DNA of 64,000 nt from contig CAVSOP010000006.1 in assembly GCA_963729635.1 (NCBI GenBank), forward strand, positions 27,283-91,282, in the 5' to 3' direction. The notes under the pieces were generated by a model, which worked only from the letters and a program-made list of their open reading frames with translations, searched no databases and was not told the origin of the DNA. This DNA is from an uncultured archaeon (lineage in GTDB: Archaea > Micrarchaeota > Micrarchaeia > Micrarchaeales > CABMGC01). Positions 1 to 32,277 of the stretch are shown in pieces. Made by a program: the position numbers and the translations under genes. Each line of letters begins with the position of its first letter. The first letter of the stretch is position 1.

Positions 1-16
1 CTGGTGTAGTGATGTC

Positions 17-1152
17 ATGAAAAAGGTCGCGCTCGCAATGCTCCTGCTCCTCGTCTCCAGCGCGAGCGCCTTCAGCATGCCCTCGACATTCTGCTCCGAC
101 CTCTTCACGGGCACCAACGCCAACAACCCGCTGCTCAGCGCGAGCTCGTACGCCTCCCTGCTCGGCATCTCCCTCGTCGTGGTGCTCATGGTGCTGACCG
201 TCCTCGGGATAACCTACGCCATCGGCATGGCCTTCAAGGTTGAGTCGCTGAAGAGCTTCACCAAGTCGGAGTTCCTCGAGAGCTTCTTCAACATCGTTCT
301 GATAGTGGTGATCTCCTCGGGCGTGGCGTTCTCCGGGAGCGCGATAGCGTTCGTGACGAACGTCGGGCTCGCGGGGATACAGTCGGTGTCATCGCAGTCC
401 GCGTCGTGCAGCGCGTCTTCGGCCGGCGGCCAGTGCGCCTCCTCTATAGCGCCCGCGCAGGCGGTGCAGGTCACAGACACGGAGAGCGTCTACCTGGGCA
501 TCTGCAACAATTACGTCCAGAACGGGATCGACACCAGCATCAACAACGCAGTACAGGGGCAGGGCTCCGTGCAGATACTCACCGCCATGCTGGGCATGAC
601 CTTCGACTGGAGGGTTAGCGGCAATGGGGTCGTGTTCATCCCGCTGTGGGGCATCTTCCCGGTCGTCTCTCTGGTCAACACCCAGGTCGGGATCTTCGAC
701 GCCATAATCGGCATGCTGCTGCTGATAACCTTCCTCCTGTACATAATCTACTCCGTCTTCCCCGTCTTCCTGTACGTCGGGATACTGCTGAGGTCCTTCC
801 CCTGGACGCGCGCGGCCGGGGGCACCTTCATCGCGATGTTCATAGCGTTCTACATAATATTCCCTGCGATACTGTATCCGTTCTCGCTCTACCTGCAGAA
901 CATCTACGCGGCGCTGAGCATCCTCCGGGCAGCCTCGACCGGTTTCTCTTCAGCGGCGTGCTGGCCGTGCTGCCTCTCATCTCGGGCACGAGCATGCTGA
1001 GCGAGATAAGCGGCTTCGCGCAGACCATCGCCTCGACGGGGCTGCAGCTGATGGGAGTACTGATCGGATTGATGATATCCCTGGACATCGTGGAGGCGAT
1101 AGGCAAGCTCCTTGGAGCGCCGTCGACGCACACCAGAAGCCTTCTTGGGTAA
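17..1152 (+). CDS. Polytopic membrane protein with signal-peptide-like N-terminus (paralog 1 of 3; VirB6/CedA-like candidate), one apparent frameshift
   Basis: ORF 17..1000 starts MKKVALAMLLLLVSSASAFS and has many hydrophobic spans. Reading continues in the frame of ORF 646..1152 after an apparent 1-nt indel near 930-960. The motif RAAGGTFIAMFIAFYIIFP recurs in the next two genes. Confidence 0.55.
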
Positions 1153-1158
1153 GTTACT

Positions 1159-2185
1159 ATGATGGGAATCCTGCTTCAGAGCATAGCGGGGTACATCACC
1201 TCGCCCCTACTGCTGTGGTTCCCCGTGGCGCTGGCGGGGCCGCCGCCATAATCGGGATAATAGCCATGATCTACATGCTGAGCACGTTCACGGGCAGGCA
1301 GGACCTGAAGGTGTGGGCGAGGGCCAAGATCTACGAGGTCCTGATGTCGATAGTCCTGATCCTGATCTTCTTCGCCGTGGTGGCGTCATTGCTCCCTGAA
1401 CTTCCAGCAGGTGTTCAATTCCGCGGGGCTGGTACTCTGCGGAGTGCCTGCCCCCGATGAACACGGCTACGGACTTCTTCACCCTCGCGGTCTGCAACAT
1501 GTACCAGTTCAACCAGGGCGTGGCCAACCTCGTGGGCGTGGTCTACGAGCTCGGCGCGGTCTCCGCGATGGTGCCCCAGGTAAAGCTGAACCTCGTGGTC
1601 ATCTCCACCAGCTTCAACCCGATCTCCCCAGGCCTCACTTCCTTCCTGGGCTACCTCGTCGACATAATCTTCGCCGCGTTCGTGCTGTCGCAGGTCCAGC
1701 TCCTGCTCCTCGCCGCGTCCCTCCTGCTCTTCTCGCTCTTCCTCGGCATGGGCCTCATCGCAAGGATATTCTCCGTAACCCGCAGCTTCGGCGGGGCGAT
1801 GATCGCCCTAGGCGTGGGTCTGGGCATAATCTATCCGATGCTGGTCTGCCTCACGTACGGATACATCAACGTCAGGCTGGACCAGACCAGCGCAGGGGTC
1901 ATGGGAACGGCGTTCGGAATCCCAGGCACGGGGATATTCACTCTGGCAGGGGGGATGATACCCAACGTGATCCTGTTCTTCATTGGCTCCCTGGTGAACT
2001 TCACGCCGTCCTCTGCTGTGCAGAGCTGGCTCATCGGCCTGCTCACGTACGGCGGGCTGGCGGGGGCTGGGTTGATATTCATTCCGTTCCTCAACTTCAT
2101 CATAGTCGACATCTTCATGATAGACTTCTCCCAGGCAATAGGGGAGAGGATGGACTTCCTGAAGCTCTTCACTTCCCTGGTATGA
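1159..2185 (+). CDS. Polytopic membrane protein (paralog 2 of 3), apparent frameshifts
   Basis: ATG at 1159 (MMGILLQSIAGY). The reading joins the frames of ORFs 1215..1460 and 1457..2185 and has many hydrophobic spans. The motif RSFGGAMIALGVGLGIIYP parallels gene 1. Confidence 0.5.
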
Positions 2186-2195
2186 GGCTGATCCG

Positions 2196-3264
2196 GTGCG
2201 CAAGAAAATCGCGATCTACGCCTTCGCGGCCCTCCTGGCGCTCCTGGCCGGGACTAGCTGGGCGCAGGGCACGACCCAGTGCGCCGCGGAGGGCACGGCC
2301 AACGTGCTCGCGCCGTGGTACTGCAGCCAGGTGAACCAGGCCGTCGCGGGGACGTGGGAGGCTTGGGCGCCCCTTGCTTTCGTCACGATCACCCTCGCGT
2401 TCCTTATCGCGGCGACGATATTCATGGCTGGGACGGCCATGAGGAACGACAAGGTGAGGAACTTCGGCGTCGGCGAGATGTACGAGGCGGCGGCCACGGC
2501 CCTGATAGCCATCTTCTTCCTCACACTGGCGGCGGTCCTGTTCGGGATCGTGCCCGCGTTCGTCACCGGCCCGATAAACCCCTACGACACTGCCCTCACC
2601 TACATAAGCAACACGGCGGGCGCCACGCAGCTAGTCGTCAGGAACCTCTACAACATACTGATCATATCGCTGTACTACACCACGGTGAACCTGAACGTCT
2701 CGTCGTTCGGCTTCGCCAGCTCGATATTCAACGCCCTGGCTCCGGCCATCGCCCTGCTCTTCGCGCTCCCCGCAGAGGCCGATGGGCAAGCTGCTCGTGG
2801 ACGGCCTCATGGCGCTCTCCATGGAGTTCTACCTGCTGATCTTCTTCATGTACCTGGCGATACCTGTGTTCCTCATGCCCGGCATAATACTGAGGGCCAT
2901 ATTCCCGCTCAGGGGCCTCGGGGGGATGCTGATAGCCGTCGCGATATCGTTCTACCTGGTGCTGCCCCTGCTCTTCTCGGTCGCATATTATTTCACTAAC
3001 ACGGGCGTCATCGGGCGCTGGACGCATCCGCCGCGGCGCTCTGACGTCCACGGCGCCGGGACGCTCGCCGAGACCAACGCCGCGTCGGCGACGGCGCCGC
3101 TCGTGACCGACGTGAAGGGGCTTGAGAGCGGCATGGGGGCGTACTTCCTCGCGGTGATCGTCTACCCGGGGCTCATACTCGCCCTGACGTACGTCGCAAT
3201 GACGCAGATAGCCGAGTTCATAGGCGGGGTCTCGAAGATGTCAGGCAAGATGAGGCTGCTGTAG
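2196..3264 (+). CDS. Polytopic membrane protein with signal-peptide-like N-terminus (paralog 3 of 3), one apparent frameshift
   Basis: GTG start, MRKKIAIYAFAALLALLAGTSWAQG. ORF 2196..2999 continues in the frame of ORF 2782..3264 (indel near 2775). Motif LRGLGGMLIAVAISFYLVLP. Confidence 0.55.
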
Positions 3265-3307
3265 ATACATTATATATCCCTAACTCACAACTATAAGTCG
3301 TGGTCCC

Positions 3308-4138
3308 TTGGCTCTATCTGAAAGACTGGTGTTCGCGCTTCTCATCATGGCGTCGATGGCGCTGGTGCTCTTCACCATCCTCTTCGCCCTGCCGGACGCG
3401 GTCAAGTTCGTCTTCGTAGTCGTCGCGCTCGCGCTCGACGTCCTGGCGTTCTCGACCAAGTACTACTTCCAGTTCTTCGTGCCCTTCTCCCAGATGAAGG
3501 GCAGGACGGTGCTCCTCAACGACGGCGAGGCGTTCACCATCGCGCCCTCGGGGAACGCTATCGTCGTCAGGAACGGGCAGGACACATACGCGAGCGCGAT
3601 CGTCAAGATACCGTCGTACAGGTCCGCCACGGAGATGACGGACGCGGAGAAGGTCGATTTCGCTAAGATGTTCGGCAGGGTCGTGAGCCTGGCGAGGAGC
3701 CCGGTGAAGTTCGCCGCCCAGCTCTACGTGATAAACAAGGACGCGTACATCTCCAACATAAAGGCCAAGCTCGACGAGGCGGAGGAGAGGTACCAGGGCA
3801 CGGTCCTCAGCAAGAGCCTCTCCAAGGCAGACTCCGAGAGGATAAGGGGGGAGGTGACGATGTGGCACAACCTCTTCGACAGCGTGAACAAGACCCGGTC
3901 CCAGTCGCTCGAGGCGTACGCGATGGTGACTTCACCGGGGAACACGGAGGAGGAGGCGGTGAACCTCGCGCTCCAGCAGGCGGACGAGATAGCGACCGGG
4001 GTGAGCGCGATCTTCGGGATATCGGCAAGCATCGCCGAGGGGACGGACCTGCTCAAGTTCCTTGAGCCGGACTACATGATACCCGCCGTCACGATAAGCG
4101 AGCAGATGCGCGAGAGGACGGTGGACAGGGAGGCATAG
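3308..4138 (+). CDS. Bitopic membrane protein: N-terminal TM hairpin plus about 200-aa soluble domain (paralog A)
   Basis: Intact ORF. Two hydrophobic segments (LVFALLIMASMALVLFTILFAL, FVFVVVALALDVLAF) are followed by a charged soluble domain. Length and layout match the next gene. Confidence 0.6.
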   Translation: MALSERLVFALLIMASMALVLFTILFALPDAVKFVFVVVALALDVLAFSTKYYFQFFVPFSQMKGRTVLLNDGEAFTIAPSGNAIVVRNGQDTYASAIVKIPSYRSATEMTDAEKVDFAKMFGRVVSLARSPVKFAAQLYVINKDAYISNIKAKLDEAEERYQGTVLSKSLSKADSERIRGEVTMWHNLFDSVNKTRSQSLEAYAMVTSPGNTEEEAVNLALQQADEIATGVSAIFGISASIAEGTDLLKFLEPDYMIPAVTISEQMRERTVDREA

Positions 4139-4146
4139 GTGGGAAG

Positions 4147-4971
4147 ATGGACGAAAAGACGATGATCTACCTTGCCTTCTCCTGCGGGGTGGCTTTCCTG
4201 GTGCTCTTCGGCAGCGCTTCCTACGGCCTCTTCGCGGTGCCTTCCGTGCTCCTGGCCCTGCTGGCGATCACAGCGATATTCGTGATAAACTACGCGGACT
4301 TCCTCGTCTTCCCTCTGATCACCAACCTTCTCGGGGTAAGGATGGTCCCGGCGAAGAACTACTACATACCGAAGGAGAACAGCTGCATAATAAAGACAGT
4401 GAACGGGCTGTACTACGCCACGGGATACCTGACGGCCAACATATACAACTACGTCTTCGAGGCGGAGGCCGTTCAGGAGGGCGAGGACGCTGTGCTCGGG
4501 GCCGCCCCGGACAAGTGGGAGAGGATAGTCATGAACGCTGGCTTCCCCTTCAAGTACAACATGATCGCCGTGGCGCAGGAGGTGCAGAAGTACAGGGACG
4601 AGCTCGAGGGCAAGCGAGGGGTGTTCGAGTTCCAGCTCTCGCACGAGATGAGCAGCGAGTCCCCGGACCAGATGACGATAGACGATCTGCAGAGGAAGAT
4701 GAACATACTAGGCGCGAGGATAGGCAGGCTCTCCGAGGGCGAGAGGCCCGTGGACTCCATAATGTACATAGAGAGCACGGCAGTGGGGGTGAGCGAGAAG
4801 GAGGCCGCCGACGCGCTGACCAACCAGCTCAACCACCTGCAGACCCTCTTCAGCTCCTTCGACCTCGGGATAAACAGGGTCGTGGGCAGGGAGATGTACC
4901 ACCTCTTCACGTTCAACTACGCGCTGCCGGAAGAGGACATGCTCACGCAGGTATTCAGCATGCAGAGGTAG
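4147..4971 (+). CDS. Bitopic membrane protein: N-terminal TM hairpin plus soluble domain (paralog B)
   Basis: Intact ORF of 274 aa starting 9 nt after the previous stop. Two N-terminal hydrophobic segments are followed by a soluble domain. Confidence 0.6.
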   Translation: MDEKTMIYLAFSCGVAFLVLFGSASYGLFAVPSVLLALLAITAIFVINYADFLVFPLITNLLGVRMVPAKNYYIPKENSCIIKTVNGLYYATGYLTANIYNYVFEAEAVQEGEDAVLGAAPDKWERIVMNAGFPFKYNMIAVAQEVQKYRDELEGKRGVFEFQLSHEMSSESPDQMTIDDLQRKMNILGARIGRLSEGERPVDSIMYIESTAVGVSEKEAADALTNQLNHLQTLFSSFDLGINRVVGREMYHLFTFNYALPEEDMLTQVFSMQR

Positions 4972-5013
4972 GCGTCGGTAAAGCGATATAAGCTTATAGA
5001 GGATTGTTGGACC

Positions 5014-6520
5014 ATGGCACTCGTGAAGATCCAGAACGTGATGAGCAACGAGCTGGCGAAGAGGGTCATCTTCAGCAGGCCTCCGGAGCCGCCTCAGGAG
5101 TTCCTCCTCAACGACCCCACCAACTCGATATTCATAGGCATAACGAAGCTCTTCGGCGTGCCCTTCACGTGGACTTTCGCCAACCTGACGAACCCGCACA
5201 TCTCCGTCGTCGGAATAACCGGCGCCGGAAAGAGCTTCTTCGTCAAGACGTTCCTGACCAGGGCCAGCTACGTCTGGAAGACCAACGCGATAATAATCGA
5301 CTGGGCGGGAGAGTACAAGGCGTGGGTGCAGCAGAGCGGAGGGATAACCGTCGCGCTGGGCAAGGGCGACTACCTCAACATAATGGACCTCTCGGGCATG
5401 AAGCCGCTGGACAGGTCCAAGCAGATACTCACGTCCCTGGAGATACTCACCGACATGAGCGACTACCCGGAGCAGAAGAGGCTCACGGAGGAGGCGATAG
5501 AGCAGGCCTACGTGAACGCCGGCTTCAACCTGGCAGAGATACCACCGGCGGGCAAGGACGCGCCGACGCTCAAGGAGGTCATAAACCTGCTGGAGGAGAA
5601 GCTGCAGGAGGGCACGTACGCGTATCCCGCGGAGCTCGAGAACGCGGTCTACAGGCTCAGGCAGTTCGCGCGGGAGGGCGAGGACTACTTCGCCAAGAAG
5701 AGCACGCTCGACCTCGGCAAGCTGATCACTTCGGGGCTGGTGGACATCGACCTCTCCAGCCTGCCGGACGAGAGGTTCAGGGCGCTCGCGGCGCTGTTCA
5801 TACTGCAGACGCTCAAGGAGAAGATGAGGATGGAAGGCTGGAACGCCTCCAAGGGCCTCAAGGCGCTGGTCGTCCTCGACGAGGCGTGGAAGATCGCCGG
5901 CGACGAGAGGAGCGACGCGGTGACGATAATAAGGGAGGGCAGGAAGTACCAGTTCGGGCTCATAGTCGCGTCGCAGAACCCGACCGACATAAACGAGGCC
6001 ATCTTCTCCAACGTCGGGCACGTCCATAATGCTGAGGGTGAAGTTCGAGAAGTTCCTCAACTACCTCCAGGGCTCGCTCAACTTCTCCAACTTCATGAGG
6101 AAGGAGATAAGCGGCCTCGGCGTCGGGCAGGCCGCGGTCGACATGTCCTTCCAGACCTCGGTCCAGTTCCCGGAGGTCTTCCTGCTCGACAAGATAGTCG
6201 GGGAGATACCTCTCGACGTCTACACCATAACGCTCGCGGACGTGCTCAGCCAGGCGGAGCTCGAGAACCCGGACGTGCAGAAGGAGTACTACCTGGAGAG
6301 GATAGACCTGAACTCGAGGTTCATGCAGGCTAACATAAACTCCGGGGCGATAGAGAACGTCTTCAAGGAGCTCGACTCCAGGGGGAGGACCCTGGACGTG
6401 AGGGGCCTGATGCAGGTCATGATTAACGAGAAGGTGAACAAGGACACAGTAGTCCAGCTCCTCAGGGGATTCGGGCTCTCGGACGCCACGATAACCAAGG
6501 CGTTCGGCTACCTGGCGTGA
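5014..6520 (+). CDS. VirB4/TrbE/CedB-like (HerA-FtsK superfamily, DUF87-type) P-loop ATPase, one apparent frameshift
   Basis: Walker A GITGAGKSFFVKT, Walker B ALVVLDEAWK, then GRKYQFGLIVASQNP. ORF 5014..6333 joins ORF 6029..6520 if one G is removed from the GGG at 6016-6018. Confidence 0.75.
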
Positions 6521-6531
6521 CCCCGGGCGCG

Positions 6532-7047
6532 TCACTTGCCGACCTGGCCGGCCAGGTATCCGACCTTCGCGAACTCCTTCGGCGAGAACCTTATGCCGCT
6601 GAACTCGTCCCCTCCAGCGCCGACGACGTGGTCCTTGCCCATGACGCCTGAGTCGACGATAGCGGGTATGCCGCTCATGTAGAACGCGAAGGGCGGGACT
6701 CCTCCGATCTCGAAGCCGAGCGCGGCCTTTATCTCGTCCGGCCTGGCCAGCCCGAACTTGCCGGAGCCGAACCTGCCGGAGGCACGGGCGCATTCCCGCA
6801 CCCTCCCGAAGTCTATCCTCTGGTCGCCGCCCACGATCACGCCAAGATACTCTGACTTGCCGTTCTTCAGCAGCATCGACTTGACTATGCTGCCGCGCCC
6901 CTCGCCTGTCGCGGCTGCCGCTGATTCGGAGGTCTTGCCGCTCTCCTTGTGCTCGATCAGCGCGTACTCGATGCGCAGTTCCCCCAGCAGCTCAAAGAGC
7001 GCGGCGCGCGCGTCAGTGTTCCTCAGTTCGCGCCAATCCAAAGGCAT
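6532..7047 (-). CDS. YbaK/ProX-type aminoacyl-tRNA deacylase (editing domain protein)
   Basis: Intact 171-aa ORF. The pattern IVKSMLLKNGKSEYLGVIVGGDQRIDF ... IGGVPPFAF is typical of YbaK/EbsC-family trans-editing domains. Confidence 0.75.
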   Translation of the reverse strand: MPLDWRELRNTDARAALFELLGELRIEYALIEHKESGKTSESAAAATGEGRGSIVKSMLLKNGKSEYLGVIVGGDQRIDFGRVRECARASGRFGSGKFGLARPDEIKAALGFEIGGVPPFAFYMSGIPAIVDSGVMGKDHVVGAGGDEFSGIRFSPKEFAKVGYLAGQVGK

Positions 7048-7154
7048 AATACCCTCAGAAGTATTCTGAACGTCTGCTTCTTAAAATGACAGTACTCCTT
7101 CCGCCAAATGGCGCCGCACAAACAATATAAACTCAAAAGAACCTATGCATATCG

Positions 7155-8573
7155 GTGATTTGCGTGGGAGCTGAAGAAGCGCTTAATCTGCTGAAGGAGA
7201 AGAACGTAAAGTGGGTCGACGTCCAGTTCACAGACCTGCTCGGGAGGCTGCAGCACATAACCGTACCCTCGAAGGACTTCGACGATAAGTGCTTCGCGGA
7301 GGGATTCGGGAAGCTCGACGGGAGCAGCATAAAGGGCTTCACCTCGATAAACGAGAGCGACATGCTCCTGGTCCCGGTGCCGGAGACCATGACGATGATC
7401 CCTTGGATGGAGAAGACCGCCAGGGTCCTCGCCAACGTCCAGTGGGGCGGGGGGCGGGGCAGGTTCGAGAAGGATCCCAGATTCATAGCCGAGTCCGCCG
7501 AGAAATACCAGAGGGAGCGCGGGTTCAGCAGCTTCTACGGGCCCGAGCTGGAGTTCTTCATATTCGACAAGGTCGAGCTCGACGTCTCGACTCCTCAGAG
7601 CGGCACGTCCTACAGGCTGAGCTCGAGGGAGGCCCCATGGCAGAAGACCGGGAACTTCATGGTCAGGTACAAGGAGGGCTACTATCCCGCGCCTCCAGTG
7701 GACCAGCTGATGGGCGTCAGGATGGAGGCGGTCAACGCGCTCACGGACTATTTCGGATTCAACATAGAGGCCACGCACCACGAGGTGGCTACGGCTGGCC
7801 AGGGCGAGATAAACTTCACTTTCTCGACGCTGACGGATTCCGCCGACAAGGTACAGACGCTCAAGTACGTTCTGAAGAACATTGCCGCGAGCCACGACAT
7901 GGTCGCGACATTTATGCCGAAGCCCATGTTCGGGGACAACGGCACGGGCATGCACACCAATCTCAGCCTCTGGTCGGTAGACGGGAAGAAGAACGAGATG
8001 TACGACCCGAGCGACTCCTACGCCGAGATCAGCCAGACGGGGAGATACGCGATAGGAGGCATACTCGCCCACGCGCGGTCGCTCTCCGCGATCTCGTCTC
8101 CCACCACGAACAGCTACAGGAGGCTGATACCGGGATACGAGGCACCGGTCTACACGGCGTGGAGCAAGGCCAACAGGAGCGCGATAATAAGGGTGCCCGC
8201 ATACTACAAGGGGATGGAGAAGGCCAAGAGGATAGAGTACAGGGCCCCGGACCCTTCGGCGAACCCGTACCTCGCGTTCGCTGCGCTGCTAATGGCCGCG
8301 ATGGATGGCATAAACAAGAAGATCGAGCCTGCGGGGCACGTCGACGAGAACATATACCACCTCAGCAAGGACAGGAGGAAGGAGCTGAAGATAGGGGAGC
8401 TCCCGAGGTCCCTGGACGACGCGCTCGACGCCCTGGAATCCGACAGCGCGTTCCTGAAGCCGGTCTTCAACGACTCACTTCTGGACTCATACATCGAACT
8501 CAAGAGGGACGAGACCATGACGATGGCTCAGTACCCCCACCCGATGGAGTTGTACTACTATCTTGACGTCTGA
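7155..8573 (+). CDS. glnA: Glutamine synthetase type I
   Basis: Intact 472-aa ORF with GS hallmarks ([71 protein letters not shown]). GTG start is uncertain by a few codons. Confidence 0.95.
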
Positions 8574-9099
8574 GGGAGGACAGGACGGGGTGCGACTCCT
8601 CCTTATCCTCTACGCGGTTGAGATACAGCGCCGCGGCGAAGAGGTACGAGGACAGCCGGTTGAGGTATGCCTTGACATTGCCGTCCACCTGGTGGCTCCC
8701 GGCGGCCTCCAGCACGCTCAACTCGGCTTCCCTGGTCATGGCCCTTAATACGTGCAGCCGCGCCGCACCTGCGCACCCTCCCGGGTTTACGAAGCGCCCG
8801 GGACAGGGCACCACTTTCTCGATGACGTCCATGCGCGCCTCGAGCCGCGCTATCGGGTCTGCTAGGGCCCTGGAATCGCCGAGACCCGACAGCACTGCGC
8901 CTACCTCGAAGAGATCGTTCTGCACGCTCGCGAGCCCCGATCTGACGCGGCCGTCGCTCACGTAGCAAAGGGCCAGGCCGAGGCCGCTATTCAGCAGGTC
9001 TATGTCCGCCAGCGCGCGTATGATGGGATCAGTTTTGGGAACGGACTTGCCTAGGGCGAACGTCGTTCCCCCGTCACCGGCTCTGGTGTAAAAAGGCAT
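8500..9099 (-). CDS. pduO: PduO-type ATP:cob(I)alamin adenosyltransferase
   Basis: N-terminus [13 protein letters not shown] ... [10 protein letters not shown] ... [10 protein letters not shown] ... [13 protein letters not shown] matches the PduO/MMAB family. The C-terminal tail overlaps glnA convergently by 73 nt, so the true stop may be earlier. Confidence 0.85.
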
Positions 9100-9135
9100 G
9101 AGTTAACCTCGTTTAGCAGATGACGAAGCCCGGAG

Positions 9136-11472
9136 TCAGGCGTATTTCACCGATGCGCGCAGCTTCCTTACGACCTCGCCCTCCTGCGCACCGATCTCCT
9201 TCTTCAGGCTCTTCCTTATTCCCGACAGCGAGCGCTCCACGCTCTCGTACGCCCGCGTCAGCTCGTCGAGCCGGCCGGCGTTCTCCCTCAGCCGCAGCAG
9301 CACCTCCGCGTCGGCGGTCTTGCTCATGAGCTTCCTGTTCGCGGCGCTGAGCTTCCTCACCGACCTGCCGTACTTGATGAACCCCTTGAATGTCGAGTTT
9401 GAGACCCTGTCGAACCTCCTGCTCCACGCGCAGACCTCGTCCATCACGGTGGCTAGTTGGTCGGCGGTCAGGGGCGCGGACGTCGCATTCCTGAACTTCT
9501 CGAAATCAGCTTCGCGGGCCTTCATGTACCTGCCCAGCAACTCGTCAGATATCCGCTTGGCGTCGTCGGCGCGCACGCCCTTCGCGCCGGATGTGAATGC
9601 CTTGTCGTACTCCTGCTTCTGCTCGCCGTTCAGGGTCGCGTACGCCTCGTTTATCTTCTGCATGATCTGGCCCGCGTCTATCTCCTTGCTCACGTCGGGG
9701 TGGTGCTTCTTGACCAGCTCCTTGTATGCGCGCCTTATCTCCTTCTGGTCGGTGGTGTACTTTATCCCGAGAACCGAGTAATAGTCTGCGGCGCCGGATA
9801 CGCGGAGGTCCATGCCGAACGCGCCGGCCTCCTTCTCGAGCATCTTCACGAAGCGATCGCTGTTCAGCAGCAGCCTCTCAGTGTACCTGTCCCTCATCGC
9901 CGTGTCGAAGGCTCTGAATGCGCCAGCGGCCCTTCCCAGAATGCCCAGAAGGGCGAGCATCAGCAGTTCAATCAGCGAGCCTCCGCGCTTCGCCGCGCCT
10001 TCGGTGGAATGCGCGGATGAGGCGGTCCCGCGAAGCCCGGTCTTCGGGCCAAGGCCGCCCGAGGCAGGGGATTTCTTGCGGATCCTGCCGCCGATACTCA
10101 GGTAGTGGGATTTCTTTTTCACTGCTTCGCCTCCATCGTCTGTCGTGTGCGACGCGGGCAGGCTAGCCTGGATTACCGCGTCCTTGGGAATCCCGTCGCT
10201 CGACCTTAGGACCTGCTTGTACGTCTCGTGCGGATGCTTCCCTTGCTTCCCCGTCAGGGCCTGCGGCGTTGCGCGGCGGTCAGCCATCGAAGGCCCGAGG
10301 GCGCCCTTCCCATCGCGAATCGCCCCTGGTCTGTAATCCGCAGTCCCCAGAACATATGAGCGGCCGGCAGTTGTCAGGTCGACTCTCGCTTGTCGCGAAT
10401 CATGAGGAGCATTCAGCGAGAGTTCGCTTACAACGGAAATTTCGCCAGTATTCCCAATCGCGTACACGAGCCTTTCCGCTCCGGTACGATTCACTACTGC
10501 GGAGTTCTCCCTGTGATATCCGACAGGAGGGATGAACTGATTCGCCGCGTAAGCAGGCAAAGCTGCGAACTGCTGCGCCATCGCGAATGCCGCGACGGCT
10601 TTCAGGGATTCGGATCCTTCAAGAAGTCCCGCCTTCGGCAGGGCTTCCGAGTAGCCCGAGAACACGGGAGCCCAGAGAGAGGCGGCAATCAGGGACGCCT
10701 TGAATCCCCGCGCGTCCCCTGCAGAGAAGCCTTCTTGCCTCGCTATCTGCATCACCCTTCCGAGAGCCGCGGTATGCTCTGAGTAGGTCGCGGCCCGGGA
10801 CGAGCCCCTTTGGGCGGAGACCTGCGCGATCGACGATACGGAGCCCTGAGTATTCTGCACTCCTGAAATCGCAGACGGTACCCTGACTTCGCCGAATGAC
10901 GCGATGATCCTGGCTCCCGATTCCGCGCCGGCAGTCGCCCCGCCATACGACATGCGGATCGTGGGACTGCCCGCAACCGGGCTCAGCGACGGCTGCATAT
11001 CGTGCAGCTTCGAAATCCTCAGGAAATCTACGACGTCCCCGCTCTGCGCCATGAACTTCACGCCGGAAGCACTTAGGGCAAGGGCGGCATTCGGAGTGAT
11101 CGCGCCGCCGCCGAGGAACCTTATATCGCCATGGCCGTTCGCCCGCAGGTAAGCCACGGTATCCGCAGCCATCCTCAGATGCGAATCGCTCGGCAGGCTG
11201 AACGCCACGGCTCTCGCGCCGTACTGCGCGACAGCGTCCGAGATTGCCGCGTAGTCTTGCGGGTCGCTCAGATATATCGCCCTGAAGCCGGCGCGGTTGA
11301 GGTCGTGGGCGACGGTCCTCGCGCCCATGGCGTGCGGGTCGTCCCCGAGTTTCACCACCAGAACCGCTTCGCCCGAGTTGCTCTCTCCATCTCGATCCAC
11401 GCGTCCGCCAATATCTTTGACGCGGCCGCGGTCCCCAAGCTCTTCAACTGCCCGCTGTTGGCGGCGAGCCAA
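9136..11472 (-). CDS. Multidomain protein: cobalamin-binding (DxHxxG) Rossmann-like domain, long linker, TM segment, DnaJ (J) domain, coiled-coil tail
   Basis: B12-binding motifs: VLVVKLGDDPHAMGARTVAHDL (DxHxxG), FSLPS (SxL) and FLGGGAI (GG). TM segment GSLIELLMLALLGILG. J domain DYYSVLGIKYTTDQKEIRRAYKELVKKHHPD. The start is uncertain: a GTG is possible near 11390, or the gene may fuse to the upstream ORF. Confidence 0.7.
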   Translation of the reverse strand: MARRQQRAVEELGDRGRVKDIGGRVDRDGESNSGEAVLVVKLGDDPHAMGARTVAHDLNRAGFRAIYLSDPQDYAAISDAVAQYGARAVAFSLPSDSHLRMAADTVAYLRANGHGDIRFLGGGAITPNAALALSASGVKFMAQSGDVVDFLRISKLHDMQPSLSPVAGSPTIRMSYGGATAGAESGARIIASFGEVRVPSAISGVQNTQGSVSSIAQVSAQRGSSRAATYSEHTAALGRVMQIARQEGFSAGDARGFKASLIAASLWAPVFSGYSEALPKAGLLEGSESLKAVAAFAMAQQFAALPAYAANQFIPPVGYHRENSAVVNRTGAERLVYAIGNTGEISVVSELSLNAPHDSRQARVDLTTAGRSYVLGTADYRPGAIRDGKGALGPSMADRRATPQALTGKQGKHPHETYKQVLRSSDGIPKDAVIQASLPASHTTDDGGEAVKKKSHYLSIGGRIRKKSPASGGLGPKTGLRGTASSAHSTEGAAKRGGSLIELLMLALLGILGRAAGAFRAFDTAMRDRYTERLLLNSDRFVKMLEKEAGAFGMDLRVSGAADYYSVLGIKYTTDQKEIRRAYKELVKKHHPDVSKEIDAGQIMQKINEAYATLNGEQKQEYDKAFTSGAKGVRADDAKRISDELLGRYMKAREADFEKFRNATSAPLTADQLATVMDEVCAWSRRFDRVSNSTFKGFIKYGRSVRKLSAANRKLMSKTADAEVLLRLRENAGRLDELTRAYESVERSLSGIRKSLKKEIGAQEGEVVRKLRASVKYA

Positions 11473-12161
11473 TCGGGGTTTACTTGCTTGTCCAGTGCAA
11501 ATTTGGAAGCATAACTCGCGAAGGTCGGGTCCTTGAGCATGTCGCGCAGATCCCGATTCTGCACCAGTTTCTTATCAGTCAGTGCGTCCGCATCGCCAAT
11601 CTTGTTGGCAGAGGCCAGCCAATTGCTGGTCCCGCCGGCACCCATGTGCTCGTATAGGTCCCACATCCTATCTGAGAAGAACCTCTGGTCTGCCAGTGCG
11701 TCGTACCCTTTCCATCCGATCACGAACAGGACGGAGGCCGCAACGTACAGGTCCCGACCTCGCATGGAATCGAAGAATTCCCCGGCGGTGAGCGCTTCGA
11801 AATGGCTCCCGTTGCTGTCTTCGTTGAGGGCGATCATGTGTTCGAGGCGGATGAGCGGGTCGAGCCGCATCATCTCGCCCCCTATCCTCTCCAGTTTCTC
11901 CGCCGAGATGCCAGGGGAGACATGGTTGATCAGCGCTTCGACGTTCGCGGGCGTCCCGATTCTTCCGGCATACTCGCGCATCTTCCGCTCCTCGTTGAGA
12001 GACCGCTCCTCCCCTTTCTCTTCCTTGCTCTTCTTCTCGCTGTCGCAGAAGAATTGGCCGATTACGGGCTTCGCTTCTCTGATGGATTCATTTACCGCGG
12101 AGTAATCCTGCGTCTTCGGAGTCGGCTTCCGGACGGTGGCTGAGATGGTCTGGACCGCCAT
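11352..12161 (-). CDS. Hypothetical protein, first gene downstream of the cobalamin riboswitch-like leader (possibly the N-terminal part of the B12-binding protein)
   Basis: Intact 269-aa ORF with GGAAGGGGTGA upstream of the ATG. No family recognised. Its 3' end overlaps the next ORF by 120 nt in another frame. Confidence 0.5.
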   Translation of the reverse strand: MAVQTISATVRKPTPKTQDYSAVNESIREAKPVIGQFFCDSEKKSKEEKGEERSLNEERKMREYAGRIGTPANVEALINHVSPGISAEKLERIGGEMMRLDPLIRLEHMIALNEDSNGSHFEALTAGEFFDSMRGRDLYVAASVLFVIGWKGYDALADQRFFSDRMWDLYEHMGAGGTSNWLASANKIGDADALTDKKLVQNRDLRDMLKDPTFASYASKFALDKQVNPDWLAANSGQLKSLGTAAASKILADAWIEMERATRAKRFWW

Positions 12162-12276
12162 TCAATCACCCCTTCCGCGCGGGGCCAGCCGCTGCGGGCT
12201 TATCTGACAAGGATGACGCTTTGCGTTCTCGGCTGGTAGAAATAGGCGCGTTTTATACATCTATACCCATGCTCGT

Positions 12277-12459
12277 GAGCTACATAGGACTCAGGCAGAC
12301 TGGCTTACCCGCGAGCGGGATTACAGTTGCGGCACAGCAGTGGAATCGCACCACTTTCCCCTGACTTTAGCTGGATCTGAACCCAGCTGTCCGGTGATAC
12401 CATTCGGAAGGATACGCTTATAATCCCTGCCAAGAAATTCTGGCACAGGACTATAGCTC
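12277..12459 (-). promoter_or_regulatory. Cobalamin (B12) riboswitch-like aptamer
   Basis: Minus strand reads AGGGGAAAGUGGUGCGAUUCCACUGCUGUGCCGCAACUGUAA, which matches the conserved core (compare E. coli btuB AGGGAAUCCAGUGCGAAUCUGGAGCUGACGCGCAGCGGUAA). This is followed by a CCCG-CUCG-CGGG hairpin and a B12-box-like AAGCCAGUCUGCCUG. A P1-like pairing GAGCUAUA (12452-12459) / UAUGUAGCUC (12277-12286) encloses it. Confidence 0.75.
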
Positions 12460-12541
12460 CAAGGCAACCTAACGTGCGCGTAAAGTCTTATAATCTTGCT
12501 CATCCTGTAGCTCTCGGACTGCTTTATCGCTGGATGAGAGA

Positions 12542-12739
12542 ATGGCCAAGGACAAATACAAAGGATGCATGCCTGGATGCGGATGCGGCAGCGCGGCCTA
12601 CGGGCTGGGGTTTATCGGTTCGCTGGTGTATTACGTGAGCACCGCGGCGACCTTCTGGCTCGCGGTCCTGGGATTCTTCAAGGCGCTGGTCTGGCCGGCC
12701 TTCCTGGTATACGGCCTGCTCAAGTTCCTGGGAATGTGA
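12542..12739 (+). CDS. Small Cys-rich membrane protein (65 aa)
   Basis: ORF MAKDKYKGCMPGCGCGSAAYGLGFIGSLVYYV... with two hydrophobic spans. No family recognised. Confidence 0.4.
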   Translation: MAKDKYKGCMPGCGCGSAAYGLGFIGSLVYYVSTAATFWLAVLGFFKALVWPAFLVYGLLKFLGM

Positions 12740-12837
12740 AAGGCCATCGCAGAGATAGGAGGGGCTCCAGCACAATTGAAACCGAATCCCAAGATTACTC
12801 CGAAATACTGCACGTTGGTGTCTTGCACTAGGCTAAC

Positions 12838-15270: not shown

Positions 15271-17434
<2,164 letters not shown>

Positions 17435-17435
17435 T

Positions 17436-17858: not shown

Positions 17859-17875
17859 TCGAGCCCGCTTGACTG

Positions 17876-19099: not shown

Positions 19100-19184
19100 C
19101 GTGACTAGTCAGAGCAGGCCCAGCTTCTTCGACTTCGACACGATCGCTCCGAGAAGCCTCTTCCTTCCTGAAGCCTTGCCGATG

Positions 19185-20104: not shown

Positions 20105-20238
20105 GTTCTTATCTGCACGGCAAGAATAATAGAGCTTTTCGGGATCACGGGCGGGCACGCCTCCGGCTGGGGTCCATTACACTAATTGAAGGATTAGAAG
20201 GGCCTGGACTTGGGGGAAGTGCAGGCCCCTGGTCCCCC

Positions 20239-28279: not shown

Positions 28280-30640
28280 TCATAGCGTCATCTGGTCCAG
28301 GTGGTCGCAGTCTATCAGCTTCAGGTAGTTGTAGTCTATCCCCAGCTTCAGCGTCTCCGCGTCATTCCCGAAGGACGCGTAGAGACCGTTGACGAACTCC
28401 TGCTTCCTCGTCTCGTCGAGGAAGACCAGGAAGGACCTCGACTCGCCCGATATCGTGACCTTCTTGGGCTTCGACCCGGTCGAGTAGACGAAGACGCTGC
28501 CCTGCTTCCCCTCCTTGGTTATCGTCAGGTCCACGGCCTGCTCCATGTCTATGTCCGTGAAGAGTATCGAGTGCACTACGCAGTAGTCCCTCAGCTTCCT
28601 GAATATGAGCAGGTACTCGACGTCGTGCTTCGAGGCGTCCACCCACGCCTTCGGCGCGTAGTAGTTCAAGGCGCTCGACCAGGTCGCCCTTTGCGGCGAG
28701 CTGCGAGAGGATCGCGTCGGCGTTCTGGGTGGTGACCGAGACGGGCATGTTGTTTATCCTTATGTTGCTGTTTATCCCGAGCCTGACCTCCTCCACGCTG
28801 AGGGGCATGTACTTCCAGTGGTAATAGTAGTTGATCTTGTCGAAGACCCCCAGGACCGAACCCGACGGCACGCCCACCTTGTCCTTCTTGAGTGGGGGGA
28901 ACTCGGGCACATCTATGTAGTACTCGTCCCTCGTCGGCGGCTTGAGTATGAAGTTAAGTAGGACCACGACCACTATCGCCACCGCGAACTCAAGGTCTAT
29001 CGCGGGCACGTAGAATATGGTCTGCACGTACTGCTCGGGTATCAGGTAGCGTTGCCGAAGAGGGCGATGGTGAACTCGTGGCTTCCATAGTTTATCGCGC
29101 CCTCGCGGCACGCGGTACGCGATGGTGCCGTTGCTGACCGTGCCGTTGGCCTCGTAGGCACCGTCGAGGCTTATCGCGTACGACGCGTTCGAGACGGGGA
29201 GCCCGTTGCTGTAGACGCTGAAAGCGAACGTCCCGTTCTTGAAGTCCGCTGACGGTCAGGGTTATCGTCGCGTTCGCGAGGTAGAAGAAGGACTCCGCGT
29301 AGTAGCGGTTGGAGAAGTCCTTCAGCGCGAGTATGTAGTAGCCGCTGGGCAGCGAGAAGGTCGGGGTCACCTCCTACCAGGGAGCCGGACGGGACCGAGC
29401 CCGTGCCTATCCTTATCGACTTGACTATCTGGCTCATGTTCCTGTCGTAGACGTCGATGTGCAGCTGCACGCTCGTGCTGGTCTTGCTGACTCGCCGAGA
29501 CGGTTATGCTGGCCACCTGGCCCTCCCCTATGACCGCGGGCGCGTCTACGGTGCCGTTCCAGGCGTACCCGTTCCTGAAGGAGAGCTCGACGGTGTCGCT
29601 GTGGCGGGGGTTCCTGAAGACGACCGTAACCAGCGAGTAGCTGGCGTTCACCGCCGCGGCCTTGGCGTAGGAGGTGTTCGAGACGCGACCCGGTGACGTT
29701 CGCGAAGACGCCGAAGCCGCCGCTCGCCGGCGGCGCGGTGACTGAAGCCGCCCGAGCCATGCGCCGATCTCGGGTATCCAGAACCTCGAGTCTATCACCT
29801 TGGCGATGTCCCTGGCCATGTTGGACGCGTTGTTCCAGGCGGACGTCGGGTAGTTGGGGAACGCTATCATGGTGCCGTTCTCTGGAGTTCACGTAGGTCG
29901 CGTTGCCGTACTCTGACCCGTACGCGAACTGGAAGGCCGGGCCCCTGAAGCTGAGGTTCTCGGGCGTTGAAGGCCACCTTGGCGTCGGCTAGTGAAGGGG
30001 GCGGGTGAGAGGTTGTACTGGGTGAGCATCGCGCTCGTGGAGTGGCGAGGCGGAGAAGGTGACGCCGTCCTACCTTATCTCGCTCGACAGGTTCCTGCCT
30101 GTGTATATCACCGTGTCGCCCTGGTCGAGCATCCTGAAGAGCGTGGCGCCCGTGCTGTTCGCGAGGGGCAGGGGCAGCTCCCCGGACGGGATTACGACTA
30201 TCGATCCCGGCGGGATCAGGCTGGCGTTGAGCAGGCCGACGTACGTGAAGCCGCTCGCGTTGAGCAGGCCGTAGGCGCCCGAGGTCCGAGACCAAGTCGG
30301 CCCTGAGCGCGGCCTCGCTGAAGCACGACAGGCAGTAGGTGCTGACGTTAAGCAGGTATATCCTCTGGCATGGGGTTCTTCGTGTAGGCGTCGAGGGTGA
30401 CGGTCGCGTTGGTCGCGTTCACGAGGCGGTAGGAGATCAGGGAGTAGATGGCGATTCCGTGCGAATTGTTGTAGAACATCGCCCTGCTCGCGTTGATGCT
30501 CACGCTCGCGGAGATGGTGCCCAGGGCCGTCTGGTTCACCGGCGCCCTTATGTGGCCGACTGCCGCCCAGACGTAGATGAACAGAGCTAGGATAAGCACC
30601 GCAAAGACCGCGGCGGCAATTAGATATTTTTGTATCTCAT
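28280..30640 (-). CDS. Large membrane-anchored, sequon-rich (NxS/T) uncharacterised protein, many apparent frameshifts
   Basis: Pieces lie in ORFs 30348..30599, 29867..30295, 29367..29870, 29171..29470, 29092..29370, 28362..29111 and 28280..28669. N-terminal anchor LIAAAVFAVLILALFIYVW. A second TM AIDLEFAVAIVVVVLLNFIL precedes an about 230-aa C-terminal domain. The ATG at 30640 needs a 1-nt correction in an A-run. Confidence 0.4.
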
Positions 30641-30656
30641 TCGCATCCCGAACGCA

Positions 30657-30809
30657 CTAGCCTCCCGCCTTCGCCCTCTTCGCTATCCACTTGTCGACGA
30701 AGGAGGCGAGCGCCTTGGACAGGGGATTCACGTTCTCGTTTATCCTCTTCAGTACGCCGAAGACCTTGACGTAGTGGTACTTCTTGTTGACAGTGACGTC
30801 GTACTTCAT
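30657..30809 (-). CDS. Small basic protein (50 aa), translationally coupled
   Basis: MKYDVTVNKKYHYVKVFGVLKRINENVNPLSKALASFVDKWIAKRAKAGG (my own translation; below the ORF-track length cut-off). The ATG overlaps the upstream stop (TGATG). Confidence 0.4.
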   Translation of the reverse strand: MKYDVTVNKKYHYVKVFGVLKRINENVNPLSKALASFVDKWIAKRAKAGG

Positions 30810-31935
30810 CAGATCAACCCTTCAGCTCCAGGTAGCCCAGGGACACCATCTTGTCCAGGATCTGCTCGATCCTCGGCTCCGGCACCTTGTAGGTCTTGGA
30901 GAACTCGCCCGACGTCTATGGAGCTGGAGTGCACCTCTATCCAGTCCTGGACCATCGCCATGAGCGCCTCGTCGGAGTAGGTCTGCAGGGACCTGAGCTG
31001 CTCGACGAGCGACTTGTTCTCCTCGTTGAGCTGGCCGGTCTGGATCGTGAGGTTCCTGTTGGCGATGCCGAGCTCCTGGGAGAGCTTCTTGAGCTCGGTG
31101 TACTCGCCGAACATGGCGTCGTACTTGTTGAAGAGCGAGCTGTAGTCCTGGGACATGCCCCCGACGAGGTTGTCGACGACGGAGTCTATGTACTGGAAGA
31201 GCTTCACCTCGTCCACGTGGAAGCTGTCGGCCATTATCGAGAGCACGGAGGCGAAGTTCTTTATGATGACGGCCCTGCGGAGCCTGTCGCTGCTGCCGGG
31301 TATTATCGAGTAGGTGACCGAGACGCGTCGGGCTTCACGGTTATTATGTAGAAGAGGAAGGGCTTCTTGTGGAGGTTCACGTTCTCGACCCTCACTATGT
31401 CGAGCTTGCCCTCGCCCTCCTGGAACGAGTAGAACTGCAGCTGCGAAACCTTGCGCCTTTATGTCCTCGAAGGTCCCCGTGAGCTTCCCGGCGAACTCGA
31501 CCTGCTCGATCTTGGGCTCTACCTCGACCTCGTCCTCCACGCTCTCACGACGGCTATAACCATTAAACCTATTTATTGGTTGTGATGGCGCCCTCGAGGC
31601 GTCTATCTTGGGGATGTAGCTCATCAGCGAGAAGAGGTAGACCACGGCGAGCACGAGGAACGAGACCAGCACAGTGAGGGCACGGGGCGACAGCACCAGG
31701 CTGACGACGACGAAGATAATCGCCCAGCGCCAGGTAGAGCCTCTGCCTGGACTCGTAGGAGCCCCTCCTCTTCTTGTACTCGGGGTAGCAGTCCCTGCAG
31801 ACGACCAGGCGGTTCCCCTTCTCGTCCTTGGTGACGTTCCTCTTGAACCACCTGAGCGCGCCGAGGACGCTGGTCCTCCTTCACGGCTATGCCCTTCCTC
31901 TCCTTCCCGCACATCATGCAATAGCTATTGGCCAT
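30809..31935 (-). CDS. Zinc-ribbon / TM / coiled-coil / C-terminal wHTH-like protein, apparent frameshifts
   Basis: MANSYCMMCGKERKG...VVCRDCYPEY (two CxxC pairs), TM IIFVVVSLVLSP...LVLAVVYLF, coiled-coil ELKKLSQELGIANRNLTIQTGQLNEENKSLVEQLRSLQ, and tail VPEPRIEQILDKMVSLGYLELKG after frame correction. Confidence 0.45.
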
Positions 31936-31944
31936 CTGACCACG

Positions 31945-32277
31945 CTACTCCACGTATATCTCGACTATCCTGCCGTAGGCGCTCTTTATCCTCTCCTCGT
32001 CCAGCATGTTGAAGACGCTCGAGATGGTTATGTCGTCTATGCCTATCCTCCTGAGGACGTTCGCTATGCTCTCCGACTTGAGGCCGAGCCTCTGGAGCAT
32101 GCCCGCGAAGGCGACGGCGTTGACGTGCCTGTGCATCTTGTTCAGGTTGGCCAGGAGCTCGTCTATGCTCTTCTCGCTCAGCTGCAGCACGGTAAGCATG
32201 CGCTTCAGCGCGATCCTGTTCACGGTGAAAGTCGATCCCAGACGAAGACCCCTGTCCCTACATATGTTTGACCGCAA
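31945..32277 (-). CDS. Hypothetical small protein
   Basis: ORF of 110 aa. The likely start is the internal M (MLTVLQLSEKSIDELLANL). No family recognised. Confidence 0.35.
   Translation of the reverse strand: MRSNICRDRGLRLGSTFTVNRIALKRMLTVLQLSEKSIDELLANLNKMHRHVNAVAFAGMLQRLGLKSESIANVLRRIGIDDITISSVFNMLDEERIKSAYGRIVEIYVE

Follow-up and report, generated by a model that had tools for sequence, protein, structure and literature searches.

A probable Ced/Ted-like translocation apparatus resident in Micrarchaeota, in which VirB4 is split and a VirB6-like family is expanded six-fold

Introduction

How DPANN archaea obtain host material is an open question. A concrete candidate for the exchange of material between Micrarchaeota and their hosts is provided by six genes at positions 17-6520 (+) of a 64,000-nucleotide stretch of DNA from an uncultured archaeon of the Micrarchaeales (assembly GCA_963729635.1, contig CAVSOP010000006.1, positions 27,283 to 91,282), which is referred to below as the window. 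The genes are co-directional and closely spaced. Three of them encode polytopic membrane proteins that are paralogs of one another, two encode a paralogous pair of membrane-anchored proteins, and the last encodes a P-loop ATPase. What kind of machine do they specify, and does it belong to the cell or to a mobile element? A reading made from the sequence alone, before any database search, had proposed a resident translocation module. The evidence assembled here makes it likely that the locus is the distal half of a resident chromosomal membrane translocation apparatus derived from a type IV secretion system (T4SS), of the same kind as the Ced and Ted systems of DNA import. Its verdict is a split VirB4 together with a six-fold VirB6-like expansion in such a Ced/Ted-like apparatus.

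The genes and their reading frames

The first three genes encode the polytopic proteins. The g1 gene (17..1162, +; 381 amino acids after repair) is the fourth of six VirB6-like paralogs, with a signal-like N-terminus and the motif LLRSFPWTRAAGGTFIAMFIAFYIIFP. It overlaps by 4 nt with g2 (1159..2185, +; 342 amino acids after repair), the fifth paralog, which is without a signal-like N-terminus. The sixth, g3 (2196..3264, +; 355 amino acids), has a signal-like N-terminus and is the best conserved of the three. The anchored proteins are encoded by g4 (3308..4138, +), with 276 amino acids from a TTG at 3308 or 263 from an ATG at 3347, and by its ancient paralog g5 (4147..4971, +; 274 amino acids), whose frame is intact. 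The last gene, g6 (5014..6520, +; 501 amino acids), encodes a stand-alone motor ATPase of the FtsK/HerA superfamily. After frame repair the spacing ranges from -4 to 43 nt, and both the tight co-directional packing and the two signal-like N-termini among g1-g3 had been recognized correctly in the sequence-only reading.

Frame changes interrupt four of the six genes (g1, g2, g3, and g6) and were mended by eye at homopolymer runs. Indels lie near 943 and 1135 in g1 and near 1239 and 1434 in g2, the base at 1434 being extra relative to three short-read runs. In g3 one indel lies at about 2782 and two that compensate each other at about 3015-3045, the latter deduced by alignment to the 92%-identical ortholog P0241, and g6 contains one extra base at about 6015. 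The repaired lengths are matched one for one by six adjacent genes of another assembly in the public record (ENA contig, 33.6 kb), in which g5 and the neighboring GlnA proteins are identical to those of the window. Short-read (Illumina) contigs from up to four independent soil or peat metagenomes have one base fewer at 1434, 2782, 3043, and 6015, sites which coincide with the frame breaks. Because these independent contigs are without the extra bases, and because frame breaks affect further genes of the window too (a B12-binding/DnaJ gene at about 11.4 kb and a 783-amino-acid gene at 28.3-30.6 kb), the breaks are attributed to errors of the window assembly rather than to gene decay. A pseudogene reading was rejected on the second assembly, the P0241 alignment, and the short-read contigs.

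Single-base indels occur about once per kb in parts of the window (1-12200 and 28283-30638), where gene calls need frame repair. The segment 750-1231, covering the C-terminal third of g1 and the g1/g2 junction, differs by dense substitutions and several small indels from short-read contigs that are otherwise nearly identical. It is either a strain-variable segment of g1, a recombination patch, or a locally poor consensus.

The motor ATPase

The Walker A (GITGAGKS, residues 67-74) and Walker B (VVLDEAWK, residues 286-293) motifs of g6 are invariant in 55 orthologs. In Pfam the protein matches DUF87 best, followed by AAA_10 and P-loop_TraG, the latter two above the Pfam cut-offs. When the orthologs were compared with the curated families of NCBI, all 55 found CedD first (best E 4e-22), then the VirB4-like family CD1110 (1e-19) and CedB (5e-19). 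The VirB4 family of mycoplasma integrative and conjugative elements and the TraC family come next, with the HerA families close behind (3e-17). These matches support the VirB4-like P-loop ATPase of the sequence-only reading. Relatives on bacterial plasmids are of the TraC/VirB4 type and DUF87 only, at no more than 28% identity.

The domain layout of g6 differs from that of complete members of these families. The protein aligns to positions 223-511 of the 527 of CedD, which is the ATPase part only, and it falls outside the CedB/CedD equivalogs. No match to PF03135 was found, and the polypeptide is without an N-terminal VirB4 domain. Only about 55 residues stand before the P-loop region and the Walker A motif begins at residue 67, which leaves no room for the N-terminal barrel of HerA either. 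Taken alone, g6 is by its sequence an unclassified member of the HerA/VirB4 branch. The relatives described in the next section show it, at the level of sequence comparison, to correspond to the motor domain of a CedB/CedD/VirB4-type protein.

At its C-terminus g6 has about 100 extra residues forming a predicted helical domain, in which a Pfam scan found nothing above threshold. Copies of the helical motif 'L..(L/I)G(L/I).....I...L' recur in residues of approximately 400-501 and likewise in a 98-amino-acid protein that usually follows g6 (L003 11515-11811). These motifs recall small three-helix or helix-hairpin modules, and the Pfam matches to UBA-like and RuvA_C families are weak. Judging from the motifs, the module could bind nucleic acid or a partner protein.

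The membrane anchors and the missing N-terminal part of the motor

Both g4 and g5 consist of an N-terminal two-helix membrane hairpin followed by a cytoplasmic alpha/beta domain (about 200 residues in g4). They had been proposed as a pair of bitopic paralogs. The paralogy stands, although it is visible by profiles only (hhalign, 96.8-97.4% over 238-254 columns; BLASTP between the two is not significant), and the bitopic topology is replaced by a hairpin.

The relation of these proteins to the motor was revealed by an exhaustive search with the g6 profile, which gave fused relatives besides stand-alone ones. The fused proteins have 870-913 amino acids, with the g6-like domain at residues of about 290-630. 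Their residues 3-250 are matched by the g4 hidden Markov model (HMM) at E-values of 5e-7, 2e-6, and 5e-4 in a set of 150 sequences, the 2e-6 match covering the soluble part only. By hhalign, the fused N-termini align with g4 at 96.3% (E 1.6e-9) and with g5 at 86.3%. The fused relatives match the CedB model along almost all of the model, from position 13-99 or so to 587 of 590 (E 1e-26 to 7e-42). One of them (locus L091) lies directly after genes of 84 and 291 amino acids with CedA1-family matches and a 65-amino-acid gene, that is, in a Ced-type operon. In terms of sequence, g4 and g5 are thus shown to be homologous to the membrane anchor and N-terminal domain that are fused to the motor in CedB-like relatives. 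It follows that VirB4/CedB is probably split into three genes here. A VirB3/VirB4-N-terminal-like part, which had been anticipated for the locus, is in this way recovered in g4 and g5.

An AlphaFold2 model of g5 (predicted local distance difference test, pLDDT, 78.9) has the two-helix hairpin and then the alpha/beta domain. Its top three PDB matches in Foldseek are chains of 747-808 residues from the inner-membrane complex of the R388 T4SS, which are presumed from their length to be TrwK/VirB4. The match is weak (E 0.13, probability 0.90, 198 columns), and a fold like the N-terminal domain of VirB4 is supported for the g5 model, but weakly. In some bacterial systems VirB3 and VirB4 are fused, and the hairpin anchor that precedes the N-terminal domain here is reminiscent of such fusions.

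The Ced-type operon of L091 spans 8659-12742 of a metagenomic contig and encodes the CedA1-family protein (84 amino acids), a CedA-like protein (291), the 65-amino-acid protein, and the fused CedB-like protein (913). The latter has an extra C-terminal region that, by eye, resembles a winged helix-turn-helix (wHTH) and a nuclease of the PD-(D/E)xK type. The same extension is seen in the fused relatives P0344, P0346, P0358, and P0382, and the shorter P0349 is without it.

The polytopic paralogs

The polytopic proteins had been described as a triplicated VirB6-like component with a common motif. The motif, R-x-F...GG-x-[FM]-IA...P, is visible in g1-g3, and its R, G, G, and P are invariant in 59 orthologs of g3. 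The number of copies has to be corrected, since relatives encode three further polytopic paralogs (uA, uB, and uC) upstream of the position at which the window begins. All 15 pairs among the six families are recognized as related by hhalign at 96.4-99.6%, with 97.9-99.3% among g1, g2, and g3 and 97.7-99.6% between g1 and the other five. Each paralog holds its own position and its own ortholog group, so the duplications are old and none of the copies is redundant.

The VirB6-like character of the family was approached through structure. A model of the g3 family was built with AlphaFold2 on P0241 (pLDDT 82.4; predicted template-modeling score 0.74). It is all-helical apart from one beta hairpin, and its helices are 45-50 residues long. 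Among 350,542 PDB chains, Foldseek placed 7o3v_G first, a 261-residue chain of the R388 stalk complex, which is taken from its length to be TrwI/VirB6; a second copy of the same chain was found at rank 21. The match is again weak (E 0.14, probability 0.87, 325 columns, TM-score 0.29-0.34). A VirB6-like fold of the polytopic proteins is accordingly a modest suggestion of the model, supported but weakly. The two independent fold searches, with g5 and with the g3 family, land on the same R388 machine, though neither match would be convincing alone.

The complete operon in Micrarchaeota

The distribution of the system was surveyed with the ATPase as query in one genome per GTDB species, and it was present in 146 species genomes. 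The best 80 of these 146 loci belong to Micrarchaeota metagenome-assembled genomes, except for a few with other labels. More than 1100 homologs of the repaired ATPase were found; the top 120 are 70-100% identical and 499-508 amino acids long, and the named sources among these 120 are Candidatus Micrarchaeota or Micrarchaeia. Genes in the loci were labeled with tblastn and phmmer, and locus L002 was read directly.

The window opens partway through an operon. The order in about 50 species-level genomes is a DUF4013-like membrane protein of 245 amino acids followed by uA-uB-uC-g1-g2-g3-g4-g5-g6. The full operon of relatives reads, from its beginning, MoxR (in some), a pilin-like gene, a protein of about 600 amino acids with 13 transmembrane (TM) segments (in some), the DUF4013-like gene, six polytopic genes, two anchors, and the ATPase. 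The complete operon is one of 10-12 genes, kept in nearly all Micrarchaeota, and the six genes of the window are its last part. That the window starts at g1 and leaves the upstream part of the locus out of view had been pointed out in the sequence-only reading.

Divergence across the approximately 50 loci is graded, with 65-84% identity for g6 and 25-46% for g1. The flanking genes are housekeeping ones that vary by genome and include genes for tRNA editing, GlnA, ribosomal proteins, PCNA, and Topo VI. Among the Pfam-annotated genes around the operon in five genome contexts, no relaxase, coupling protein (VirD4), integrase, or replication gene was found. The G+C content of the operon region (0.60) is the same as in the rest of the window (about 60%). 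The operon is chromosomal and vertically inherited, and the earlier view of it as resident rather than mobile, with housekeeping neighbors and no conjugation genes in sight, is upheld.

Two kinds of exception were seen. In one complete chromosome (L003/L082, OY969902.1, 852,977 bp), the operon stops at g5 and g6 lies about 130 kb away, 83% identical to g6 of the window and with its downstream partners retained. Linkage between the motor and membrane genes is therefore not obligatory. In addition, a few genomes retain just g4-g5-g6 as a group.

The pilin-like protein and other upstream genes

The region upstream of the operon in four genomes contains a MoxR ATPase, a small protein of 122-149 amino acids, and often the 13-TM protein. 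The small protein has a signal peptide, two hydrophobic helices with a short charged loop between them, and cysteines that are conserved close to either end. In Pfam, three of four orthologs match T4SS_pilin (PF18895; best E 0.0012) and two of four match TrbC/VirB2 (PF04956; best E 0.075). A small VirB2-like protein upstream of the window had been predicted, and a candidate is thus available in relatives. Its VirB2-like nature is supported by these matches, if weakly. When its family was aligned by hhalign with the N-termini of the polytopic proteins, 76% was obtained for uB, 14% for the N-terminal hairpin of g2, and nothing for the others. These values are too weak, and the relation between VirB2 and the VirB6 N-terminus reported for Ced is therefore not claimed here.

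The 13-TM protein has about 600-640 amino acids and a sequon-rich C-terminal domain. It lies between the pilin-like and DUF4013-like genes with a regular placement (L082 976-2886, L085 820-2742, L087 1047-2945, and L089 19031-20866), and no Pfam family matches it above threshold. Judging by gene lengths, it is apparently absent from the corresponding interval on the sibling contig of the window. It might be a glycosyltransferase-like modifier of the pilin. In L089, a more distant member of the Micrarchaeota, a block of MoxR, pilin-like, DUF4013-like, and 611-amino-acid membrane protein genes (16520-20866) is found downstream of the ATPase rather than ahead of the polytopic genes, and the MoxR/pilin block therefore moves as a unit relative to the channel/motor block.

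Minimal versions in distant relatives

Two distant stand-alone relatives of g6, on archaeal contigs (L092, from GCA_023247775.1, and L093), sit in short operons. In L093, a 79-amino-acid homolog of the pilin-like protein (E 5.5e-10) lies directly before a single polytopic gene, whose 314-amino-acid product matches the HMMs of all six paralogs (1e-17 to 1e-20). One protein of 260 amino acids that matches the HMMs of both g4 and g5 comes next, and then the ATPase. L092 has single genes for a polytopic protein and an anchor, and further ones for a 5-TM protein, the ATPase, and a protein of 230 amino acids. These operons show that four parts, the pilin-like, polytopic, anchor, and ATPase proteins, travel together. 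The pilin-like protein therefore belongs to the system, its homolog adjoining the module even in L093. Since the version of the distant contigs is simpler and of one copy each, the form found in Micrarchaeota represents a six-fold expansion of the channel and a two-fold expansion of the anchor.

Comparison with known systems

The closest parallels are found in Ced. In Sulfolobales, CedB and CedD each comprise a transmembrane segment, a partial VirB4-like N-terminal domain, and a HerA/VirB4-like ATPase, and CedA and CedE are VirB6-like paralogs (PMC11868833). Ced and the system of Micrarchaeota are alike in being chromosomal, non-mobile, and free of relaxase and coupling protein. Both consist of a minimal set of pilin-like, VirB6-like, and VirB4-like components, the latter two duplicated into paralogs, and the pieces of CedB/CedD would correspond to g4/g5 plus g6, for which CedD and CedB are among the top curated families. 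The differences are also clear. Micrarchaeota have separate genes for two anchors and one motor, whereas Ced has two complete fusion proteins, and there are six VirB6-like paralogs instead of one or two. The score of g6 is about ten-fold under the NCBIfam cut-offs (67 versus 600-700 bits), and the polytopic and pilin-like proteins, strict companions of the motor though they are, show no detectable similarity to CedA/CedA1 in comparisons with single sequences. The host lineage is DPANN here and Thermoproteota for Ced, and no evidence was seen here of control by ultraviolet light or DNA damage.

The Ted system of Thermoproteales (TedA, TedB, and TedC) is likewise a domesticated T4SS with VirB2-, VirB6-, and VirB4-like parts. 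Its pilin TedC has a cleavable signal peptide, and its components have no recognizable sequence similarity to those of Ced (PMC9905601). The pilin candidate of Micrarchaeota apparently has a signal peptide, as TedC does. As Ced and Ted are without recognizable mutual similarity, divergence of this order is normal for such systems. Ted differs in having a complete VirB4-like protein, TedB, and a single VirB6-like gene.

Among bacterial T4SSs, R388, whose inner-membrane complex comprises TrwM/VirB3, TrwK/VirB4, and TrwI/VirB6, is the system to which the fold searches point, with the g5 model matching VirB4 chains and the g3-family model a VirB6 chain (both weakly, and with chain identities taken from length). 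The small upstream protein shares the layout of VirB2 and has the weak T4SS_pilin/TrbC matches given above. R388 has a single VirB6 gene, whose product is reportedly present in several copies in the 7o3v structure, whereas six distinct VirB6-like genes occur here. A six-fold, orthologously fixed expansion implies that the channel is hetero-oligomeric, in contrast to bacterial systems, where one gene encodes VirB6. Moreover, VirB1, VirB5, VirB7-B11, VirD4, and a relaxase are absent from the locus, there is no Pfam match to VirB3, the VirB4 N-terminal domain, or TrbL/VirB6, and no outer membrane is present.

Lineage-wide, vertically kept machinery of the T4SS type is also known from ultrasmall host-dependent cells of the Patescibacteria and Nanohaloarchaeota, in which it has been linked to the symbiotic way of life (PMC12102498, PMC10266531). 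The Patescibacteria differ in having a complete VirB4, of the monoderm MPF-FATA class, that is detected by standard HMMs, and in Nanohaloarchaeota the ATPase is fused to giant adhesin-like proteins. A split motor with six channel paralogs is found in neither.

Function and alternative explanations

In the proposed mechanism, the six different VirB6-like proteins would combine into a hetero-oligomeric channel or stalk, and their long helices (45-50 residues) would extend past the membrane. The hairpins of g4 and g5 would dock a hexamer of g6 beneath this channel, and ATP hydrolysis could drive the assembly of a pilin-like tube, the threading of a polymer through the channel, or both. The most likely cargo would be DNA, or else some other nucleic acid, which the cell would take up from its host or from sister cells or exchange with them. 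A nucleic acid is favored because of the analogy with Ced and Ted, together with the lack of a relaxase or coupling protein.

Several observations weigh against the interpretation as a Ced/Ted-like apparatus. Cargo and direction are argued from analogy with Ced and Ted, and a transcript search found no RNA runs holding the locus. For the motor, HerA scores are just a few orders of magnitude below those of Ced and VirB4, and all are far under the curated cut-offs (46 versus 643 bits for TIGR00929, 59 versus 325 for CD1110, and 67 versus 600 for CedD). In PDB sequence searches with g6, chains of the HerA type rank first, with the VirB4 C-terminal domain 4ag5 at a similar level. The polytopic proteins have no match in Pfam (including TrbL), NCBIfam, or PDB sequences, and the anchors have none in Pfam or NCBIfam, with 44 orthologs of each scanned at E up to 5-10. 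Profiles of g4, g5, and the pilin-like protein found only coiled-coil noise or nothing among PDB sequences. The VirB6 and VirB4-N-terminal fold matches are weak individually (Foldseek E 0.13-0.14, TM-score 0.29-0.35), and the E-values of the g4-HMM matches to fused relatives and of the matches in L092 and L093 refer to small local sets. The pilin candidate lies outside the window, and its matches are below the Pfam gathering scores. A comparison with CedA and CedA1, of a kind that the sequence-only reading had suggested as a check, detected no similarity: neither the polytopic families nor the pilin-like family rose out of the noise against the 291-, 84-, and 65-amino-acid proteins of L091 (HMM and hhalign), a comparison low in power because only single sequences from this locus were available. 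Finally, stored newer Pfam annotations of the locus contigs include the CedA1 family (PF27251) and list none for genes of Micrarchaeota.

Other functions can be envisaged for a resident apparatus. It might be a surface or docking machine without cargo, building a pilus-like tube or an envelope platform for attachment to the host. The minimal archaeal set of VirB2-like, VirB6-like, and VirB4-like proteins meets the needs of pilus biogenesis (Beltran et al., PMC9905601), the operon is accompanied by a pilin-like gene, and the very long helices of the polytopic models could project into the pseudo-periplasm. Cryo-electron tomography of the Micrarchaeon ARM-1 has further shown that nanotubes from the host enter a barrel of about 21 nm in the envelope, to which no genes have been assigned (PMC11329633), and its platform would be an example of such a structure. 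However, all known relatives (T4SS, Ced, and Ted) move substrates, the motor is exceptionally conserved with at least 70% identity across the phylum, and nothing ties these genes to the tomographic densities, which leaves a machine without cargo unlikely. Somewhat lower still is the probability given to a conduit for proteins, effectors, macromolecules, or nutrients between symbiont and host. The relaxase-free T4SS of Patescibacteria is reported to be indispensable to Saccharimonadia when they grow as epibionts (PMC12102498), a role as secretion channels has been suggested for the SPEARE-type proteins of nanohaloarchaea, which contain VirB4/TraG ATPase domains (PMC10266531), and Micrarchaeota depend on hosts and have the operon as a core trait. 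Yet the nearest sequence relatives are CedB/CedD-type proteins of DNA-import systems, no effector-like genes were recognized in the operon, and the wHTH and nuclease-like domain seen by eye at the C-terminus of fused relatives would point to DNA. A more elaborate proposal combines import with docking: the six paralogs would form a pseudo-six-fold hetero-hexameric channel, matched through g4/g5 to hexameric g6, which would constitute the ARM-1 'docking platform' under the S-layer and pull host nucleic acids or other polymers into a symbiont unable to make its own nucleotides. This is improbable as a whole, and its link between the operon and the nanotubes or barrel of ARM-1 is speculation.

Two further explanations deny that the locus is a resident translocation apparatus. 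Genes of the T4SS type are usually mobile, the relatives of g6 on bacterial plasmids are mostly on conjugative ones, and an island of insertion sequences and restriction-modification genes exists in the window at 20.3-25.9 kb, so a remnant or domesticated conjugative plasmid or integrative element, present by chance in this genome, had to be considered. Against this stand the same gene order in about 50 species-level genomes, a divergence that tracks the genomes, housekeeping flanks without conjugation or integration genes in the five contexts, and an operon G+C equal to that of the genome, whereas that of the true island is 42-49%. A mobile element is close to refuted and carries very little weight. 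Even less is left for g6 as a HerA-type DNA-repair or defense helicase merely adjoining unrelated transporter genes. The best Pfam family, DUF87, is described as 'HerA central domain', the PDB ranking points the same way, and orthologs bear the Joint Genome Institute (JGI) label 'DNA helicase HerA-like ATPase'. But g6 is without the HAS-barrel N-terminus, and NurA, Mre11, Rad50, Sir2, or another defense partner was found neither in the neighborhood within the window nor in the listed loci. Instead of a HerA/NurA-type ATPase lacking membrane partners, there is a fixed linkage with membrane genes, a g4-like part fused to the g6-like domain in relatives, and a fused relative within a Ced-like operon. 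The helicase explanation is contradicted by fusion and synteny.

Known and new aspects

Searches of the literature on Micrarchaeota or DPANN with VirB4, VirB6, T4SS, Ced, HerA, and secretion found no description of the operon. The Mia14 genome paper lists type IV pili and a Sec system, and no mention of the locus was found in it. A domesticated T4SS of the Ced/Ted type is known as a kind of system. What appears to be new is that a DPANN phylum has such a system among its core traits, that VirB4/CedB is divided over three genes, and that six VirB6-like paralogs are fixed. The class of domesticated conjugation machines represented by Ced and Ted would thereby be extended from Thermoproteota to DPANN, and VirB4/CedB would be seen divided into a separately encoded anchor and motor, a change of which fused and minimal intermediates survive to this day. 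For the question of host material, the operon offers a phylum-wide conserved set of the right kind, with a putative membrane channel, a pilin-like subunit, and a polymer-pumping motor, which can be tested in existing co-cultures.

Downstream neighbors and other features of the window

Four genes lie directly after g6 in most Micrarchaeota, their order having been taken from L003, L014, L016, and L033. In the window their homologs are displaced to 28283..32277 (-), as found by tblastn. They encode the 98-amino-acid helical protein (about 31945-32277, -), which follows g6 in 77 of 80 loci, a Zn-ribbon protein (about 31624-31935, -) homologous to that following g6 in relatives, a coiled-coil and wHTH-like protein of about 240 amino acids (about 30809-31516, -; after g6 in 68 of 80 loci), and a membrane protein of about 783 amino acids (about 28283-30638, -) that is broken by many indels of the window. 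A Pfam scan of these conserved genes gave nothing above threshold. The wHTH-like gene has a weak similarity to the 230-amino-acid gene that follows the ATPase in L092. It is possible that the four genes are parts of the machine.

The low-G+C island at 20300-25900 (42-49% against 60%) contains three transposase-like open reading frames (ORFs) of 219, 345, and 198 amino acids, as well as an ORF of 796 amino acids that by eye resembles a fusion of N6-adenine DNA methyltransferase and restriction-modification domains. It is a real mobile insertion, unlike the operon studied here. At 9136-12161 (-), the frameshifted gene mentioned above encodes a large protein in which a B12-binding domain is joined to a DnaJ domain, an unusual fusion. 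It has 1007 amino acids in the sibling assembly and 1060 in L085, and adjoins glnA in close relatives.

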